Origin: Escherichia phage MIZ6
Sequence record: OR192075.1
Strand: one strand, 5' to 3'
DNA: 64,000 bases
The position numbers were made by a program, and so were the translations under genes. Positions 5,415-11,119 of this stretch are shown piece after piece. The notes beneath the pieces were generated by a model. It had not been told where the DNA came from and did not search any database. It worked only from the letters and a program-made list of their open reading frames with translations. How positions within the stretch are numbered: position 1 is the first letter of the stretch; each line of letters starts with the position of its first letter.

Positions 5415-5504
5415 AGTCTCTTCCTCTCTTCGTTTTCGATGCTCTCACTATATCACAGAAAAATAAAAAGGGAAACCCCTTTCAGAGTCTCCCTTATAAA
5501 GCCA

Positions 5505-5792
5505 TTACAGCATACTTAATACAGTTTGCCGTGTACTAATCCACATAGCAGAAAGCAGTTCTGGCGTGTGTGGCTGTTTGTAGATATCACGTAACTTTCC
5601 GATAGCGTAGATATACGCATCGCGGTTATCATCGATGATAGCTTGTTCAGCCCACCGCTTAAGGCGTGCAATCTCTCGCGAGTTCTTACGCAAGATCTTT
5701 TCCGCTTTCTTAGCGGCTTTAGCCTCTAGTTCTGCTTGTACTTTGTCTACTTCATTCACTGCAATCTGGTCATGCTGTTCATTGCAAGTCAT
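5505..5792 (-). CDS. hypothetical protein
   Basis: 95-aa ORF between gp47 and gp55. Confidence 0.45.
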   Translation of the reverse strand: MTCNEQHDQIAVNEVDKVQAELEAKAAKKAEKILRKNSREIARLKRWAEQAIIDDNRDAYIYAIGKLRDIYKQPHTPELLSAMWISTRQTVLSML

Positions 5793-5793
5793 A

Positions 5794-6027
5794 TTATTTT
5801 ACCTCTGGGATATAATCAATTATTAAAGAAAATTCATCTTCTGATACATTATAGCTATGTGAGATTGTACCCGTAAAGACCTCAAGATCCGGTGATTTGA
5901 TATTGCACGGATCGATAATCACCGGAACGCCGCAATCTCTCAAAAATAATTTGGCGAAATACGGCACGAGGTCAGTTTCAAACTCTGCTTCTTCCAGCAA
6001 ACGGGAAATGTTAATTTTCAATCTCAT
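5794..6027 (-). CDS. hypothetical protein
   Basis: 77-aa ORF. Confidence 0.4.
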
Positions 6028-6544
6028 AAAATTGGTCCAAGCTAGGCAATTCCTCGGTCAATACATCTTCAACCTTTGGCGCTTTCGGTTTATTGACCGA
6101 TTCCTCGTAGTTGTTGATTTTATCGTAAATGTCCTGTATGAATGCCTCATCAGCAATCTGGCACATATCAGCGTCGCGTTCGTCATATACATGATGCACA
6201 AAATATTTGTATTTTGCGGCTGTCGCTGTTCTTTCTTTTTTAATGCGCTGTACAAAAGCATTAAAGCACGCTTGCGTGATGTAAGCATGAGGATTTTTAT
6301 ACTTTGTCTCGTCAAAATTAATCAAACCCTTGACCGCCGCTTCGATTCCGTCGTCGATCATTTCTTCGCGCCATGTTTGACTATAACCAGAAAAGTTAAA
6401 ACGACGTGATAGATTTTTAGAGATTTGCATAATTGCTAGGCCGATTTGATCGCTCATTGGAACTTGCCGACCTTCTGCTGCAATTTGTTGTTTCCAACGG
6501 CAAATTTCTTCGTAAAGCTCTTTATTGTTTACATAATCAGACAC
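6011..6544 (-). CDS. 55: late-transcription sigma factor gp55
   Basis: 177 aa; ...[63 protein letters not shown]... closely resembles T4 gp55. Confidence 0.9.
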
Positions 6545-6584
6545 TTCGCACCCTCGCTATTATTTAGGAAATAACCCTTTCGGG

Positions 6585-8054
6585 CTATTCCCCATTACCA
6601 TTATACTTTCTTTGCTTAGTTATCCACACTCTAACCATCTCTACGGATTCACCGTCAGACGGATCAAGAGTTTTTCCTTTTTTCTTCATGCGGTACTTAA
6701 ATCCGTTAAATCTTGCATTCTCTTGCTCGTTAAAGTCGAACATCTTTTTAAATGATTTTCGCCCTTTACGCTCACCGCATTCTAGCGGAATCATTCGGTC
6801 TGTTATTACATTGGCATTAGGCAGAAACGTTTTTAGATAATCCACCAACGCCCAATCAGGAACATATAGATTAACATTCTCCTTGCTCTCGTTGTCTCTC
6901 AGGTTACAACGCAAACATAATTGAAATGCTGGTTCCAGATAATCAGACACATGACGCGCTTTCAAAAACTCGTTTGTTGGGAGATCACAACTATTAGCAA
7001 GACCTTTTAAAATATCAATCTCCCATCGTTGAGGGTTAAAGCTGAACATCACAGCAACATTTTTATGATGAATGTAAGAGTTAAGACCATAAGATCCGTA
7101 AGGTATCCGCTCACCAATACCATTTGTGCACGCTTCACGGTCCCGATTCACGGTATAAATGAAGTCATCACCACATTCATTTTTAACCATATCAACAAGA
7201 CGTTCAAAGGTATTGTTTGTTTCTGACTGGTGACGCGACCATCGTTCGGAGTCCGTCATAAGGATGATGTTAACTCTATCTGTATTTTTATACTCTTTGA
7301 AATATAGTCTGGATTCTAGCGCACTCGGAACAAAATCGCAATTTGCATAGTATCGTAGATACTTCCCACTATATGTATCAAAGAGATTTGCACATGCTAT
7401 CGTAACCTTTTTAAAGTCTCCCCACGTACCGTGTTTGTTATCGTTCAAGAAAACAATTTTCGACCCATTCTTCCGGTGTCCTTCGTTATGTTTTACCATA
7501 ACGTTGATTTTCTTCTCTAATAACGCCTCATAAAGCCCTCTAAGAGAAGAATCGATCATATCAGTACCATCCTTTGCACTTTCTATCTTTTCTTTGATAG
7601 CGGCCTTCTCAGAGTCTTTTAGAACTAAGTTCTGTAGGCATTCCGATTCGTCGGCGATTGGTTCGCAATGCTTCGTGATAAGTTCAAGATTAGACTTAAA
7701 CGGATACTCATTAAATTCAACCAGTTGAGGAACTTCATCAATGTAAAGAGCATATTCACCAAACATTTTTGAACGTTCCATATTAGATAACGCTGTATGT
7801 GTAATGAATATCACATCAGCACCATCTTTAACTGATTGCATTATAGACGCTTGCACTGTCTTAAGGCTTCTTAGTCTTGTGCTATCAATCAAGACAGCAC
7901 GACCGCCCATTCTTTTAAACTTATTGTAAGATTGTTCACTTAAAACACGAGATGGCGAAGCAATAACCGCTTTTTCTTTTGTCTCTAGGACGTGGGAAAG
8001 TATAGCATCAGTTTTCCCCGCCGCTGGCAATGCGATTAATGTTTCAATCTTCAT
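6585..8054 (-). CDS. P-loop NTPase with helicase-like motifs and a large unassigned C-terminal region
   Basis: 489 aa; Walker A LPAAGKT, motif Ia-like SPSRVLSEQ, Walker B ALYIDEV in first ~110 aa; remaining ~370 aa no recognisable motif; start overlaps stop of upstream ORF (ATGA at 8054). Confidence 0.7.
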   Translation of the reverse strand: MKIETLIALPAAGKTDAILSHVLETKEKAVIASPSRVLSEQSYNKFKRMGGRAVLIDSTRLRSLKTVQASIMQSVKDGADVIFITHTALSNMERSKMFGEYALYIDEVPQLVEFNEYPFKSNLELITKHCEPIADESECLQNLVLKDSEKAAIKEKIESAKDGTDMIDSSLRGLYEALLEKKINVMVKHNEGHRKNGSKIVFLNDNKHGTWGDFKKVTIACANLFDTYSGKYLRYYANCDFVPSALESRLYFKEYKNTDRVNIILMTDSERWSRHQSETNNTFERLVDMVKNECGDDFIYTVNRDREACTNGIGERIPYGSYGLNSYIHHKNVAVMFSFNPQRWEIDILKGLANSCDLPTNEFLKARHVSDYLEPAFQLCLRCNLRDNESKENVNLYVPDWALVDYLKTFLPNANVITDRMIPLECGERKGRKSFKKMFDFNEQENARFNGFKYRMKKKGKTLDPSDGESVEMVRVWITKQRKYNGNGE

Positions 8055-8359
8055 TAGAAACCCTTACGTCGTGCTTTCTGGCATTTCTTGATCATTTTAT
8101 CAGAAATTTCGCGCTTAGGTGCAATCTCTTTCACACCGAAAGCACTAATGCCAAATTCAGAGAGAATATATTCAACTAACAATTCACGCACACGCGCTTT
8201 ACCGATATTCACGCCGTTATTTTTCAGATATGTCTGGCCTTCGACTTGCATCAGATCTAAATCAGCGTCGGTAATATTGATTTCTTCCATGCGCCCAAAT
8301 CGAGAGTAAACCATGTGTGCGATTGTATTGTGTACTAACATAATATATTCCTCACTCAA
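8054..8359 (-). CDS. hypothetical protein, translationally coupled to the P-loop protein
   Basis: 101-aa ORF ending at 8054. Confidence 0.5.
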   Translation of the reverse strand: MSEEYIMLVHNTIAHMVYSRFGRMEEINITDADLDLMQVEGQTYLKNNGVNIGKARVRELLVEYILSEFGISAFGVKEIAPKREISDKMIKKCQKARRKGF

Positions 8360-8362
8360 GAA

Positions 8363-8470
8363 TTACTTAATGATACTTACTTTACCAGATCCGTGACAAT
8401 GAGCGCAACACCCATCACCACGCAATCCTGTTCCGTTACAGTGTTTACACTTCTTCAACGGTAAAGCCAT
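8363..8470 (-). CDS. candidate 35-aa zinc-finger peptide (two DnaJ-type CxxCxGxG repeats)
   Basis: ATG 8468-8470; translation MALPLKKCKHCNGTGLRGDGCCAHCHGSGKVSIIK; below track cutoff; weak RBS. Confidence 0.3.
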   Translation of the reverse strand: MALPLKKCKHCNGTGLRGDGCCAHCHGSGKVSIIK

Positions 8471-8510
8471 TATAACAAATAAAGCAATAATGAACACCGA
8501 AACTAAATTC

Positions 8511-8780
8511 TCAATAATCATAAATCGCCCTCAGTTCTTTATAGCCTCCAATGTGCTCGTTGTTAATGAATATCTGGGGGTATACAAACCGGAGGCTCTT
8601 TGAGTTCAGCCTCCCCGCCAGTTCTTCAATCATATCACGGTCGGGAATAATGTCAACCCCGACCTGCTTGAATACTGGTTTAAGTGTATACGGAATACCC
8701 AGATCATCCAGTAGCTTCATTGCACTAATACAACCATAACAATGATAAGCCTCTTTCGGTATGCCGTATATCTCGATCAT
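8511..8780 (-). CDS. nrdH: glutaredoxin-like protein NrdH
   Basis: 89 aa with CYGC redox motif; synteny next to nrdG/nrdD. Confidence 0.75.
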   Translation of the reverse strand: MIEIYGIPKEAYHCYGCISAMKLLDDLGIPYTLKPVFKQVGVDIIPDRDMIEELAGRLNSKSLRFVYPQIFINNEHIGGYKELRAIYDY

Positions 8781-9277
8781 TTCTCAGCCTTTAATCTTTC
8801 TAGTTCTTCTTCCAGTTCCTTGATCCGTTGGTCACGTTCAAAGTCACGTTGTAGCTTAGTGGCAAATACCCGCTTAAACTGATTGTAATCATCGATTTTA
8901 AACACTTCTTCTTCGCCATAGCGACGTACAGAAACTTCGTAGTTATTGAAGAATTGTTGCATCATTGCTTCGGATGATAGTTCTGCTGATACTACTTTAA
9001 AATATTGATCTTCTGTAGGCGAAAACCAATTACAAGCATAAAGATAAACCTTTTCATTGTCTGGGCACTGGTAAGCCTTACCATCGATTTCAATCACAGA
9101 AACATATTCAGGTATAGTAGATGAATCAATAGCTAAGACTTTAAACTGACGGTCCCCGATAAACTCAGAGATCACACGATTCGCATCACTGGTTGCAAAG
9201 GCTTTACGCGCTTGTTCGCTTTTCCACTGATAGGTCATACCAACAACAAACATATTACCAACCTCGCTCTTTACCAA
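8777..9277 (-). CDS. paralogous modular protein A (beta-rich domain plus C-terminal coiled-coil tail)
   Basis: shares KSEQARK and domain pattern with neighbours; tail ...QRIKELEEELERLKAEK. Confidence 0.6.
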   Translation of the reverse strand: MVKSEVGNMFVVGMTYQWKSEQARKAFATSDANRVISEFIGDRQFKVLAIDSSTIPEYVSVIEIDGKAYQCPDNEKVYLYACNWFSPTEDQYFKVVSAELSSEAMMQQFFNNYEVSVRRYGEEEVFKIDDYNQFKRVFATKLQRDFERDQRIKELEEELERLKAEK

Positions 9278-10079
9278 TCAAAAATTCAACTTCACGACGT
9301 TTAATGTCTTCTTGAAGGTCTTTAATCTTCTGGCGATCTTGCATGATTTCGTCCATTTTGTCAAGTGCTGCAATAAAATCATCGAAACGTTCAAAGGTTT
9401 TACCTTCATTTGCTTCGCCAAATTTAACCATAGTCAGACCGTAACGACTACTAAACAGACGTTTCAACTGTCCAACGATCTTAGAATCAGTGGTTATAAC
9501 TTCCAATTCTTCTACTTCTTGAAAGAATTTTCTATCAGAATCAATAAACCAGCTAGTTCCTTTATGGTTGCTATCTTCGGTTGCACTCATTAGAGTATGG
9601 TCTTTACCATCAATTTCAATTACATCAATTTGCCCACATGGACGAACATTTTTAACAGTAAAAGGTCTATAATTTATTGCTCGTGCAATAACATAATTAA
9701 GGTTAGATACGTTTTCAGCATAATGGCAGAAGTCGGTCATAGCATTCGCATCTTTCCAAGTATAAGTTTTACCAACTTCCCATTTCTGGGGAACTTCTTC
9801 AACTTCACGAAAGAATTTTCTATCGAATGGACTAAAGAAATATGTTGCCGTCCAAATGTCTTTTCCTGTAGCAGTTTTCGCCGTATGATAAACACCGTCT
9901 AGCTCTATTGCATTAATCCAACCATTACCCTCGATCTCGATGATGGTAAATGGCTTGTCACCAATAGCTGCACTAATATCGCTATTAAGTGGAGAAAGAA
10001 CACCTTCTCCGTTAGTAATAAACTCAGTTTTAGCGTTTACATCTTTCCAGGTGTAAGTTTTACCAATTTCCCATTTCAT
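9255..10079 (-). CDS. paralogous modular protein B (internal tandem duplication of the ~95-aa domain)
   Basis: MKWEIGKTYTWKD...DRKFFREVEE repeated as KWEVGKTYTWKD...DRKFFQEVEE. Confidence 0.65.
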   Translation of the reverse strand: MKWEIGKTYTWKDVNAKTEFITNGEGVLSPLNSDISAAIGDKPFTIIEIEGNGWINAIELDGVYHTAKTATGKDIWTATYFFSPFDRKFFREVEEVPQKWEVGKTYTWKDANAMTDFCHYAENVSNLNYVIARAINYRPFTVKNVRPCGQIDVIEIDGKDHTLMSATEDSNHKGTSWFIDSDRKFFQEVEELEVITTDSKIVGQLKRLFSSRYGLTMVKFGEANEGKTFERFDDFIAALDKMDEIMQDRQKIKDLQEDIKRREVEFLIGKERGW

Positions 10080-10091
10080 AATATATTCCCC

Positions 10092-10577
10092 TTAACCGAT
10101 TTTATCAAGTTCGTTTAATGCTTTCTCTGCTTCCTGTATAGCTTGCACCCTTTCCGGCATTTTGTCAAGAAAATCTTTCAACTCTTCAAAACTGGAGATA
10201 TGACGCAAGGCATTAGCACCGATAGCCGCATGTGATTTGCATTCAAAGCGAATTTTATAATTATCCATAGCCAATTTGAGAAGATCAATTAGATCATATT
10301 CACGACCAGGCAATAAAACTTCTTTGAAGCACGCTCGGTCGCCATCGGAAAACCATATATTATCGCCAACATCGATAGAACTAATATAATCCCCTTCGTG
10401 ATTATAGATTGAACGTACATTACCCCAACGGTCTACAGTAGCGACAGTAAATGGTTTATCTAGATATGTAAACACACCATCAATATTAGGTTTTTGTTCG
10501 TAACGCCAACAATCACGCAAAATACGCTTTTCGTACTCACCAACCAACTTATATGTCTTCCCTTCTTCCCATTTCAT
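10092..10577 (-). CDS. paralogous modular protein C
   Basis: likely start at MKWEEGKTY...; same domain and helical tail (..MPERVQAIQEAEK..). Confidence 0.6.
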   Translation of the reverse strand: MKWEEGKTYKLVGEYEKRILRDCWRYEQKPNIDGVFTYLDKPFTVATVDRWGNVRSIYNHEGDYISSIDVGDNIWFSDGDRACFKEVLLPGREYDLIDLLKLAMDNYKIRFECKSHAAIGANALRHISSFEELKDFLDKMPERVQAIQEAEKALNELDKIG

Positions 10578-10581
10578 AATA

Positions 10582-11109
10582 TCATCTCTCATTTTTGATA
10601 TGTGATTCTAATTGGATCATACGGTCGCGCGTTTGCTTATATTCTCGGATAGCACCGATCCGGCTAGGCATACCATCCAGTACGCTCTTAATCCCTTCTA
10701 GGGTAGTGATTTTAGCAATACTATTATGCAATCCCATCTTATCGATTAACTGAATGTCGTAGGCTTCCATAAGCAGACCCAGACGTTCTAAAGTTAGGTC
10801 TTCTTCTTTTTCTTCCGATTCTGGAATCTTAGGTTCAATAGTAACTTCGGTAAAGAAACGACGCTCGCCCGACCAAAACCACACACCGGAACAGCCAATA
10901 GGGGATTCTTTTAACGTCATAGAGTCGTAACCGCTGCCGATAATAGTAATTTCTCTAACATCACCATCATCGTCAATGTCTTCTACCCTAAACGGGCGAC
11001 CAGCCAACAAGTCAACAATACATCTGTTAATAGACGACGAAAATTTAGTCAGTTCGGCTTTCGACGCTTCGCATTCAATCTTGTAAGTTTTACCAACTTC
11101 CCATTCCAT
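10582..11109 (-). CDS. paralogous modular protein D
   Basis: likely start MEWEVGKTY...; tail ..GMPSRIGAIREYK.. Confidence 0.6.
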   Translation of the reverse strand: MEWEVGKTYKIECEASKAELTKFSSSINRCIVDLLAGRPFRVEDIDDDGDVREITIIGSGYDSMTLKESPIGCSGVWFWSGERRFFTEVTIEPKIPESEEKEEDLTLERLGLLMEAYDIQLIDKMGLHNSIAKITTLEGIKSVLDGMPSRIGAIREYKQTRDRMIQLESHIKNER

Positions 11110-11119
11110 AATAATCACC

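Follow-up and report, generated by a model that had tools for sequence, protein, structure and literature searches.

Phage T4 serves as the reference for work on phage DNA replication, and its three helicases are usually taken as the full set. Whether related phages encode a further one is the question raised by a 489-aa open reading frame (ORF) lying between nrdH and gene 55 in Escherichia phage MIZ6. We analyzed a 64,000-nucleotide stretch of this genome (sequence record OR192075.1; hereafter, the window). An earlier note, made from the same letters, had located the ORF correctly and read its product as a P-loop protein with a single RecA-like core and an unassigned C-terminal region of ~370 aa, coupled to a small upstream ORF. 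The note also stated rightly that T4 has only small 55.x ORFs at this locus; T4 55.1 is found there, encodes 87 aa, and is unrelated to the 489-aa protein. In phage RB49, the 100% identical protein (RB49ORF044c) is annotated as a "hypothetical protein." Judged by its conserved motifs and predicted structure, the 489-aa protein is a complete two-domain superfamily 2 (SF2) helicase-type ATPase, representing an uncharacterized subfamily of a known kind of enzyme. The small ORF is a homolog of T4 gp55.2.

Motifs and predicted structure of the 489-aa protein

The three motifs named by the earlier note, LPAAGKT, SPSRVLSEQ, and ALYIDEV, are present at residues 9-15, 33-41, and 102-108. Conservation was evaluated in two alignments, the first comprising 26 homologs with 32-74% identity and the second comprising 33 sequences reaching down to ~20% identity. 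Residues G13, K14, T15, S33, L38, Q41, D106, and E107 are invariant in the former, whereas K14, L38, D106, E107, G323, Q378, R382, and R386 are invariant in the latter. This invariance indicates that the Walker and helicase motifs are under selection rather than chance matches. The ordered SF2 motifs I, Ia, II, III, IV, V, and VI are all present with their catalytic residues conserved (Table 1). Motif Ia aligned with motif Ia of DDX52, PriA, and reverse gyrase in profile searches, and the family consensus of motif III is VTIAxAN. Residues C130 and C380 are the sole invariant cysteines among the 26 homologs.

A confident AlphaFold2 model based on the alignment of the 26 homologs (mean predicted local distance difference test score, 87.8; predicted template modeling score, 0.76) contains two tandem RecA-like domains, a feature of SF2 helicases and translocases. 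The first domain (RecA1) is predicted to comprise residues 1-111 and ~198-250, separated by an ~85-aa insertion. A second RecA-like domain (RecA2; ~255-420) carries conserved motifs IV, V, Va, and VI, and a basic helical tail of ~65 aa completes the protein. Within residues 421-489, 17 Lys/Arg stand against 10 Asp/Glu among 69 residues, and W477 is invariant among the 26 homologs. The model thus replaces the single RecA core and 370-aa tail of the earlier note with a full SF2 core. Where that note saw neither a second helicase domain nor a motif VI, both are now evident, and the C-terminal region can no longer be called unassigned.

Database searches are consistent with the model. The Pfam DEAD family matched residues 11-130 at 27.4 bits (gathering cutoff, 26), and among 33 family members, 21 matched DEAD and 12 matched ResIII. 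When a broad family profile was compared with the PDB, the RecA1 domains of SF2 proteins were retrieved, namely DDX52 (1.3e-5), PriA (8e-5), the helicase domain of reverse gyrase (8e-5), Mfd (2e-4), and also flavivirus NS3. Foldseek ranked CasDinG, XPD, and DinG first (E values of 2e-9 to 1e-7; template modeling scores of 0.42-0.48). The NCBIfam search of the protein returned nothing, and the PADLOC defense models gave one sub-threshold, irrelevant match. Motif invariance, the Pfam DEAD match, the model, and the fold searches together bear out the proposal of a genuine P-loop NTPase with helicase motifs.

Family distribution and relatives

The protein matched PHROG 2467 (unknown function) across its entire length (E value of 8.8e-175; residues 1-489 aligned to positions 8-502 of the 502-position profile) and, less strongly, PHROG 31024. 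By tblastn, full-length, intact homologs were found in 243 phage records at 35-100% identity, decreasing to 35-42% outside Krischvirus. These records derive from phages of Aeromonas (77), Escherichia (53), Cronobacter (19), Enterobacter (18), Citrobacter (12), Klebsiella (9), Serratia (8), and Proteus (7), with Erwinia, Morganella, Yersinia, and others among the further hosts. Given that a gp55 search retrieved ~1880 phage records, the helicase is present in ~13% (about one in eight) of T4-type genomes. The survey of T4-like genomes called for by the earlier note thus reveals a patchy gene.

An exhaustive search of 1.84 billion representative proteins identified 355 relatives at E ≤ 1e-3, many of them ~800 aa in length. 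The N-terminal 460 residues of these longer proteins are homologous to residues 1-456 of the phage protein, insertion included (hhalign probability, 100; E value of 1.6e-56). Their C-terminal domain features invariant D570 and D572 (GIWLDxDxG, of the hhhDxD type) and HGFD motifs and, in all four cases tested, matched PHROG families labeled "DNA primase" (4e-8 to 2.5e-4). No match was obtained for this domain against Pfam and PDB profiles; the label "primase-like" therefore stands on the PHROG matches and the DxD motif. The ~800-aa proteins are encoded in integrated elements, adjoining integrases, resolvases, transposases, or a terminase. By sequence comparison, the phage motor shares ancestry with these helicase-plus-primase-like proteins of integrative elements. 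Examples with an N-terminal helicase and a C-terminal primase-like domain include P0081, P0058, P0066, and P0145, from integrated bacterial elements (loci L033-L036 and L040-L042); P0145 bears an additional N-terminal extension of ~390 aa.

Some short relatives instead end in a helix-turn-helix (HTH; HTH_23 and HTH_7), and many have a GRP or GRK motif directly after RecA2. Since an HTH, a primase-like domain, or a basic tail can follow RecA2, this position holds a variable DNA-related appendix. No homology of the tail (residues 421-489) to HTH or primase-like tails was detectable. The idea that the tail is a degenerate HTH is unsupported, as the hhalign alignment with HTH-tailed relatives ends at residue 418. 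A search of a plasmid collection gave one partial match, and at the locus of Pseudoalteromonas phage PH357, the neighbors are all hypothetical proteins.

Relationship to known helicases

The closest overall fold to the modeled protein is that of the XPD/Rad3/DinG group, especially CasDinG and the DinG proteins of Finegoldia magna and S. aureus, which lack an iron-sulfur (Fe-S) cluster. Based on the model, the nearest solved relatives by fold are 5'-3' DNA helicases of the DinG/XPD group, although the ranking of CasDinG, XPD, and DinG as leading matches was not reproduced with a long relative. Several features set the protein apart. It is only ~10-16% identical to XPD/DinG proteins and is much smaller (489 versus 550-900 aa). 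Between motifs Ia and II, it has 60 residues of ordinary RecA core in place of an Fe-S domain with its four-cysteine set, although the cluster is also absent from accepted group members, such as CasDinG. Its insertion occupies the place of the XPD/DinG Arch domain, a likeness that is positional only, and is roughly half the length. Motif II reads DEVP, whereas XPD and DinG have DEAH. The protein had no Pfam match to DEAD_2 or Helicase_C_2 at E ≤ 1, and neither figured in the top 25 by frequency of the 36 families matched by the 33 relatives at E ≤ 0.05. Because of the missing Fe-S domain, the missing DEAD_2/Helicase_C_2 signal, and the DEVP sequence, we do not file the protein within the XPD/DinG group.

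Compared with the T4 helicases UvsW (SF2), Dda (SF1B), and gp41 (DnaB-like), the protein is neither a paralog nor a replacement. Its match to UvsW is no better than that to generic SF2 proteins. Genes dda, 41, and 61 are all present in RB49, and uvsW is shared by RB49, RB43, 44RR, and Aeh1 (PMC1524935); with all four genes retained in RB49, replacement of a T4 helicase is ruled out. Clear homology to a characterized T4 protein, which the earlier note had named as grounds for refutation, was found for the small upstream ORF and not for the 489-aa protein.

Earlier literature touches briefly on the subfamily. Some primases of the all3500 family, as Kazlauskas et al. (2018) reported, carry fused domains with "only remote similarity" to SF2 helicases, the closest homologs of which are uncharacterized proteins of "some T4-like phages and SPbeta" (PMC5862659). 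The same study predicted an SF2-like helicase family of viruses and plasmids (pVOG1685/pVOG9714) with members in T4-like phages and pointed out a similarity of pVOG9714 to UL9 (PMC5862659). Occurrence in T4-like phages, remote SF2 similarity, and fusion of the same helicase module to a primase-like domain are common to both descriptions; the domain order differs, the helicase being C-terminal to the primase in the all3500 proteins and N-terminal in the fusions found here. The family fits the description of pVOG1685/pVOG9714 and may be identical with pVOG1685.

Proposed function

We consider it probable (~0.62) that the 489-aa protein is a catalytically intact SF2 helicase-type ATPase that serves as an accessory, non-core DNA motor in phage replication, recombination, or repair. 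Of the candidate functions listed in the earlier note, a nucleic-acid-dependent NTPase leads, whereas a DNA-modification enzyme falls away. The predicted ATPase would bind DNA and hydrolyze ATP in the cleft between RecA1 and RecA2 using K14, D106/E107, and the motif VI arginines R382 and R386, with the motif VI glutamine also placed in the active site. Hydrolysis would drive translocation on DNA or its unwinding, to which the insertion following motif II and the basic tail may contribute by handling DNA. The analysis establishes the fold class, the set of motifs, the distribution of the family, and its homology to the helicase module of the element-borne fusions; we infer the substrate to be DNA rather than RNA, and likewise infer actual unwinding, polarity, and the biological role. 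Expression would presumably occur together with the surrounding early-type genes nrdH, 55.2, and 55. The 489-aa motor counts as an extra helicase alongside gp41, Dda, and UvsW, with no obligate partnership with gp55.2.

A number of points weigh against this reading. Sequence similarity to known SF2 families is weak and confined to RecA1, and a PDB sequence search with the protein alone or with a close-family profile gave no meaningful match. Our literature search found no experimental work on any family member. The SF2 domain of E. coli IEE contains all helicase motifs and is a DNA-dependent ATPase without unwinding activity (PMC9943667), so SF2 motifs do not guarantee unwinding. Lastly, the primase-like label of the fused domain depends on PHROG labels.

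The assignment adds a fourth, conserved SF2 motor to ~13% of gp55-bearing phage genomes, including RB49, RB43, and all 77 Aeromonas T4-like records, and gives at least 243 genomes a testable enzyme in place of a "hypothetical protein." The picture of an orphan single-RecA protein is corrected, and the small neighbor is tied to the characterized topoisomerase I inhibitor gp55.2. The value lies in annotation and in a target for biochemistry; no new principle is revealed.

Alternative roles for the motor

Among the alternatives, the best placed, though unlikely, is an origin-recognizing initiator akin to UL9, in which the tail would bind a specific phage site and the SF2 core would open it for loading of gp41/gp61. 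Fusion of the same helicase module to primase-like domains in integrative elements is an initiator-type architecture, some short relatives have the C-terminal HTH, 1 of 33 relatives matched Pfam Herpes_ori_bp (E value of 0.0014), and the related pVOG9714 resembles UL9 (PMC5862659). The 489-aa protein itself, however, had no match to Herpes_ori_bp (PF02399) or to an HTH in the Pfam search, and its tail could not be aligned with HTH tails. No repeated binding sites or origin turned up, and no search was aimed at those. An initiator would moreover be a special case of the accessory DNA motor. A fuller version, in which a UL9-like initiator with an Fe-S-less DinG/XPD-like core was inherited from the helicase-primase initiators of integrative elements, is slightly less likely again, and the same holds for an initiator-type or gp55.2-linked function of the helicase taken together. 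A bolder variant has the helicase working with gp55.2 on topoisomerase-I-bound DNA. Were the initiator reading true, the RB49, RB43, and Aeromonas branches would gain a helicase-driven route to origin firing that T4 does not have.

A non-unwinding SF2 motor, either a DNA translocase or a protein-displacing ATPase that possibly strips host or defense proteins from DNA as a counter-defense, is a doubtful alternative. Many SF2 proteins translocate without unwinding, as documented for IEE (PMC9943667). An accessory, patchy gene (243 of ~1880 gp55-bearing records) is what counter-defense genes often are, and the structural neighbors include the defense helicases CasDinG, Hna, and DdmD. Yet the defense-system models gave no relevant match, and the gene has kept its syntenic place across long evolutionary distances and does not lie in a variable island.

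The upstream gene 55.2 and the two-gene question

The earlier note described the upstream partner as a 101-aa ORF. That length follows from a mechanical reading from TTG at 8359; RB49 is annotated with a start at ATG 8341, yielding 95 aa, and GAGG lies 8 nt upstream. The product matched Pfam DUF7570 (98 bits; cutoff, 27) and is 47% identical to T4 gp55.2 over 74 residues (BLASTP E value of 3e-19), encoded in the same slot between nrdH and gene 55. The RB49-type protein is shorter than that of T4 (95 versus 108 aa), and its N-terminal third is divergent. T4 gp55.2 binds DNA, keeps E. coli topoisomerase I from relaxing negative supercoils, and raises phage fitness (PMC4396842). By sequence, the upstream ORF is a homolog of T4 gp55.2; DNA binding and topoisomerase I inhibition are known for the T4 protein alone.

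The reported overlap is real, with one base common to the 55.2 stop codon TAA and the helicase ATG (TAATG, nt 8054). We compared 29 T4-like loci from IMG/VR. A 55.2 homolog occurs in 28 of them, and in about 22 it reaches the helicase start or stops within ~70 nt of it. Adjacency spans several genera and includes RB43, where the next gene is not gene 55. In the remaining six, 55.2 is located 0.8-2 kb upstream with other ORFs between; separated loci are of the Cronus-like (L006), Serratia (L008, L012), and 44RR/25-type Aeromonas (L013-015, L031) kinds. Whatever gene precedes the helicase overlaps or abuts its start, be it 55.2 (RB49, RB43), a 191-aa ORF (Aeromonas), or a 57-aa ORF (Erwinia phage Cronus). 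Further, 55.2 is found in no fewer than 1084 phage records, among them that of T4, from which the helicase is missing, and helicase relatives outside T4-like phages have no 55.2 neighbor. The two-gene unit suggested earlier thus reduces to a conserved gene order. The adjacency of 55.2 and the helicase most likely reflects the conserved gene order of tightly packed operons, with no evidence of an obligate functional pair; distribution and the non-adjacent loci rule out such a pair, although the two products may interact.

These data bear on a supercoiling-control module, in which gp55.2 would block host topoisomerase I while the helicase works on the same DNA. Such a module would be a split analog of pairings between a helicase and a type IA topoisomerase, as in reverse gyrase or RecQ-Topo III, and would accord with the one-base overlap, the recurrent adjacency, the known activities of T4 gp55.2 (PMC4396842), and the reverse gyrase helicase domain among the best sequence-profile matches. 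We regard it as very unlikely. Most 55.2 genes, that of T4 included, work without the helicase, which has homologs in 243 records; the intervening ORFs, the one locus lacking a nearby 55.2, the missing neighbor outside T4-like phages, and the indifference of the start overlap to the upstream gene point the same way. The reverse gyrase match reflects generic RecA1 motifs only.

The single locus with no 55.2 detected within 4 kb upstream of the helicase is L022 (an IMG/VR contig of 165,977 bases), where the helicase stop codon abuts the start of gene 55. The 191-aa ORF that overlaps the helicase start in 44RR/25-type Aeromonas phages (L014, 3429..4004) has no Pfam match. Its N-terminus (GVGSRETP...GRSGGADKADDAFE) may resemble SLOG/DprA-like Rossmann proteins.

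RNA helicase and DNA-modification readings

It is scarcely likely that the protein is a DEAD-box kind of RNA helicase acting on phage or host RNA. Despite the Pfam DEAD match, a Q motif is absent, with only nine residues preceding motif I, and motifs II, III, and VI read DEVP, CAN, and QLCLRCNLR rather than DEAD, SAT, and HRxGRxGR. The best whole-protein structural matches are DNA helicases, and family members are fused to primase-like and HTH domains.

The idea of a DNA-modification enzyme, or of Walker motifs arising by chance in a non-NTPase fold, is effectively refuted: all that favors modification is a position near the a-gt site of T4, whereas the motif residues are invariant at ~20% identity, the model and fold searches give SF2 ATPases only, and the family and fold searches contain no transferase or methylase signal. 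The helicase gene occurs in phages with and without dCMP hydroxymethylase. Homologs of this enzyme were found in 48 Aeromonas phage records, phiAS4 and Aes516 among them. Since both of these phages carry gp42 and the helicase, the helicase gene does not track cytosine modification, and a link to unmodified cytosine or a role as glucosyltransferase substitute is ruled out.

Gene neighborhood

Across window bases 5500-9300, sequence identity is 100% with Escherichia phages MIZ2 and MIZ3 and 99% with RB49 (Krischvirus, Straboviridae). According to the ORF list, every gene in this interval is on the minus strand, and by the RB49 annotation, the order is nrdG, four paralogous ORFs, nrdH, a 52-aa ORF, 55.2, the 489-aa ORF, gene 55, a-gt.5, a-gt.4, and gene 47. 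As the earlier note stated, the T4 a-gt gene has no counterpart here in either the ORF list or the RB49 annotation. The best upstream sigma-70-like site is a possible early promoter for the run from ORF046 through 55.2 and the helicase to gene 55, and the first same-strand terminator-like hairpin downstream follows a-gt.4. As consensus matches, the two candidate positions are consistent with early-type co-transcription of the helicase with 55.2 and gene 55. Near the helicase gene, neither a T4 late promoter nor a MotA box was found.

Table 1. Features of the helicase locus in the window (residue numbers refer to the 489-aa protein; invariance is among the 26 homologs unless stated).
Feature	Coordinates	Strand	Basis or remarks
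489-aa SF2 helicase-type ATPase gene	6585..8054, stop codon included	minus	ORF list; PHROG 2467; homologs in 243 phage records
T4 gene 55.2 homolog, 95 aa from ATG	8054..8341	minus	Pfam DUF7570; BLASTP to T4 gp55.2; RB49 annotation
Motif I / Walker A, ALPAAGKTD, residues 8-16	8007..8033	minus	P10, G13, K14, T15 invariant; K14 also in the 33 sequences
Motif Ia, IASPSRVLSEQS, residues 31-42	7929..7964	minus	S33, L38, Q41, S42 invariant
Motif Ib-like, VIFITHTAL, residues 81-89	7788..7814	minus	V81, F83, T85, H86, L89 invariant
Motif II / Walker B, ALYIDEVP, residues 102-109	7728..7751	minus	D106, E107 invariant in both alignments
Predicted insertion in RecA1 between motifs II and III, ~85 aa, residues 112-197	7464..7721	minus	Model secondary structure; C130, D165, L178 invariant
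Motif III-like, KVTIACAN, residues 216-223	7386..7409	minus	T218 invariant, N223 nearly so; beta strand 216-221 in the model
Predicted second RecA-like domain, residues 255-420	6795..7292	minus	AlphaFold2 model
Motif IV, FIYTVNRDR	7137-7163	minus	Conserved as FIYTxNxxR
Motif V, IPYGSYGLNSY	7074-7106	minus	Conserved as YxxHGLNxY
Motif Va, NVAVMFSFNP	7032-7061	minus	Conserved as FSFNP
Motif VI, YLEPAFQLCLRCNLR	6897-6941	minus	Conserved as EPAFQLCxRxNxR; Q378/R382/R386 invariant
C-terminal tail, residues 421-489	6588..6794	minus	Low-confidence linker with GRK, then two long predicted helices (435-486)
Putative sigma-70-like site, best upstream (TTGACA-16-TATGAT with TG)	8629..8656	minus	Consensus scan only, 11/12 matches; best of the coding strand, inside nrdH (8656-8629)
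Terminator-like hairpin, first downstream, after a-gt.4	5468..5495	minus	Consensus scan

In RB49, an HNH/AP2 endonuclease gene (ORF040c; L001, 7641..8195) lies between a-gt.4 and gene 47. The window has in its place only a 90-nt spacer (5415..5504) with the terminator-like hairpin, and the mobile endonuclease is thus absent from this strain.

Upstream of nrdH, the four consecutive paralogous ORFs (8777..11118, minus strand; RB49ORF048c-051c) encode proteins of 166, 274, 166, and 178 aa with mutual BLASTP E values from 1e-4 to 7e-15. The 274-aa paralog contains the N-terminal "WExGKTYxW" module twice. The 52-aa ORF between nrdH and 55.2 (8363..8521, minus strand) encodes an N-terminal hydrophobic helix followed by a zinc-ribbon-like CxxCxGxG...CxxCxGxG motif, with a weak DnaJ_CXXCXGXG match and a match to PHROG 3931 at an E value of 8e-10.

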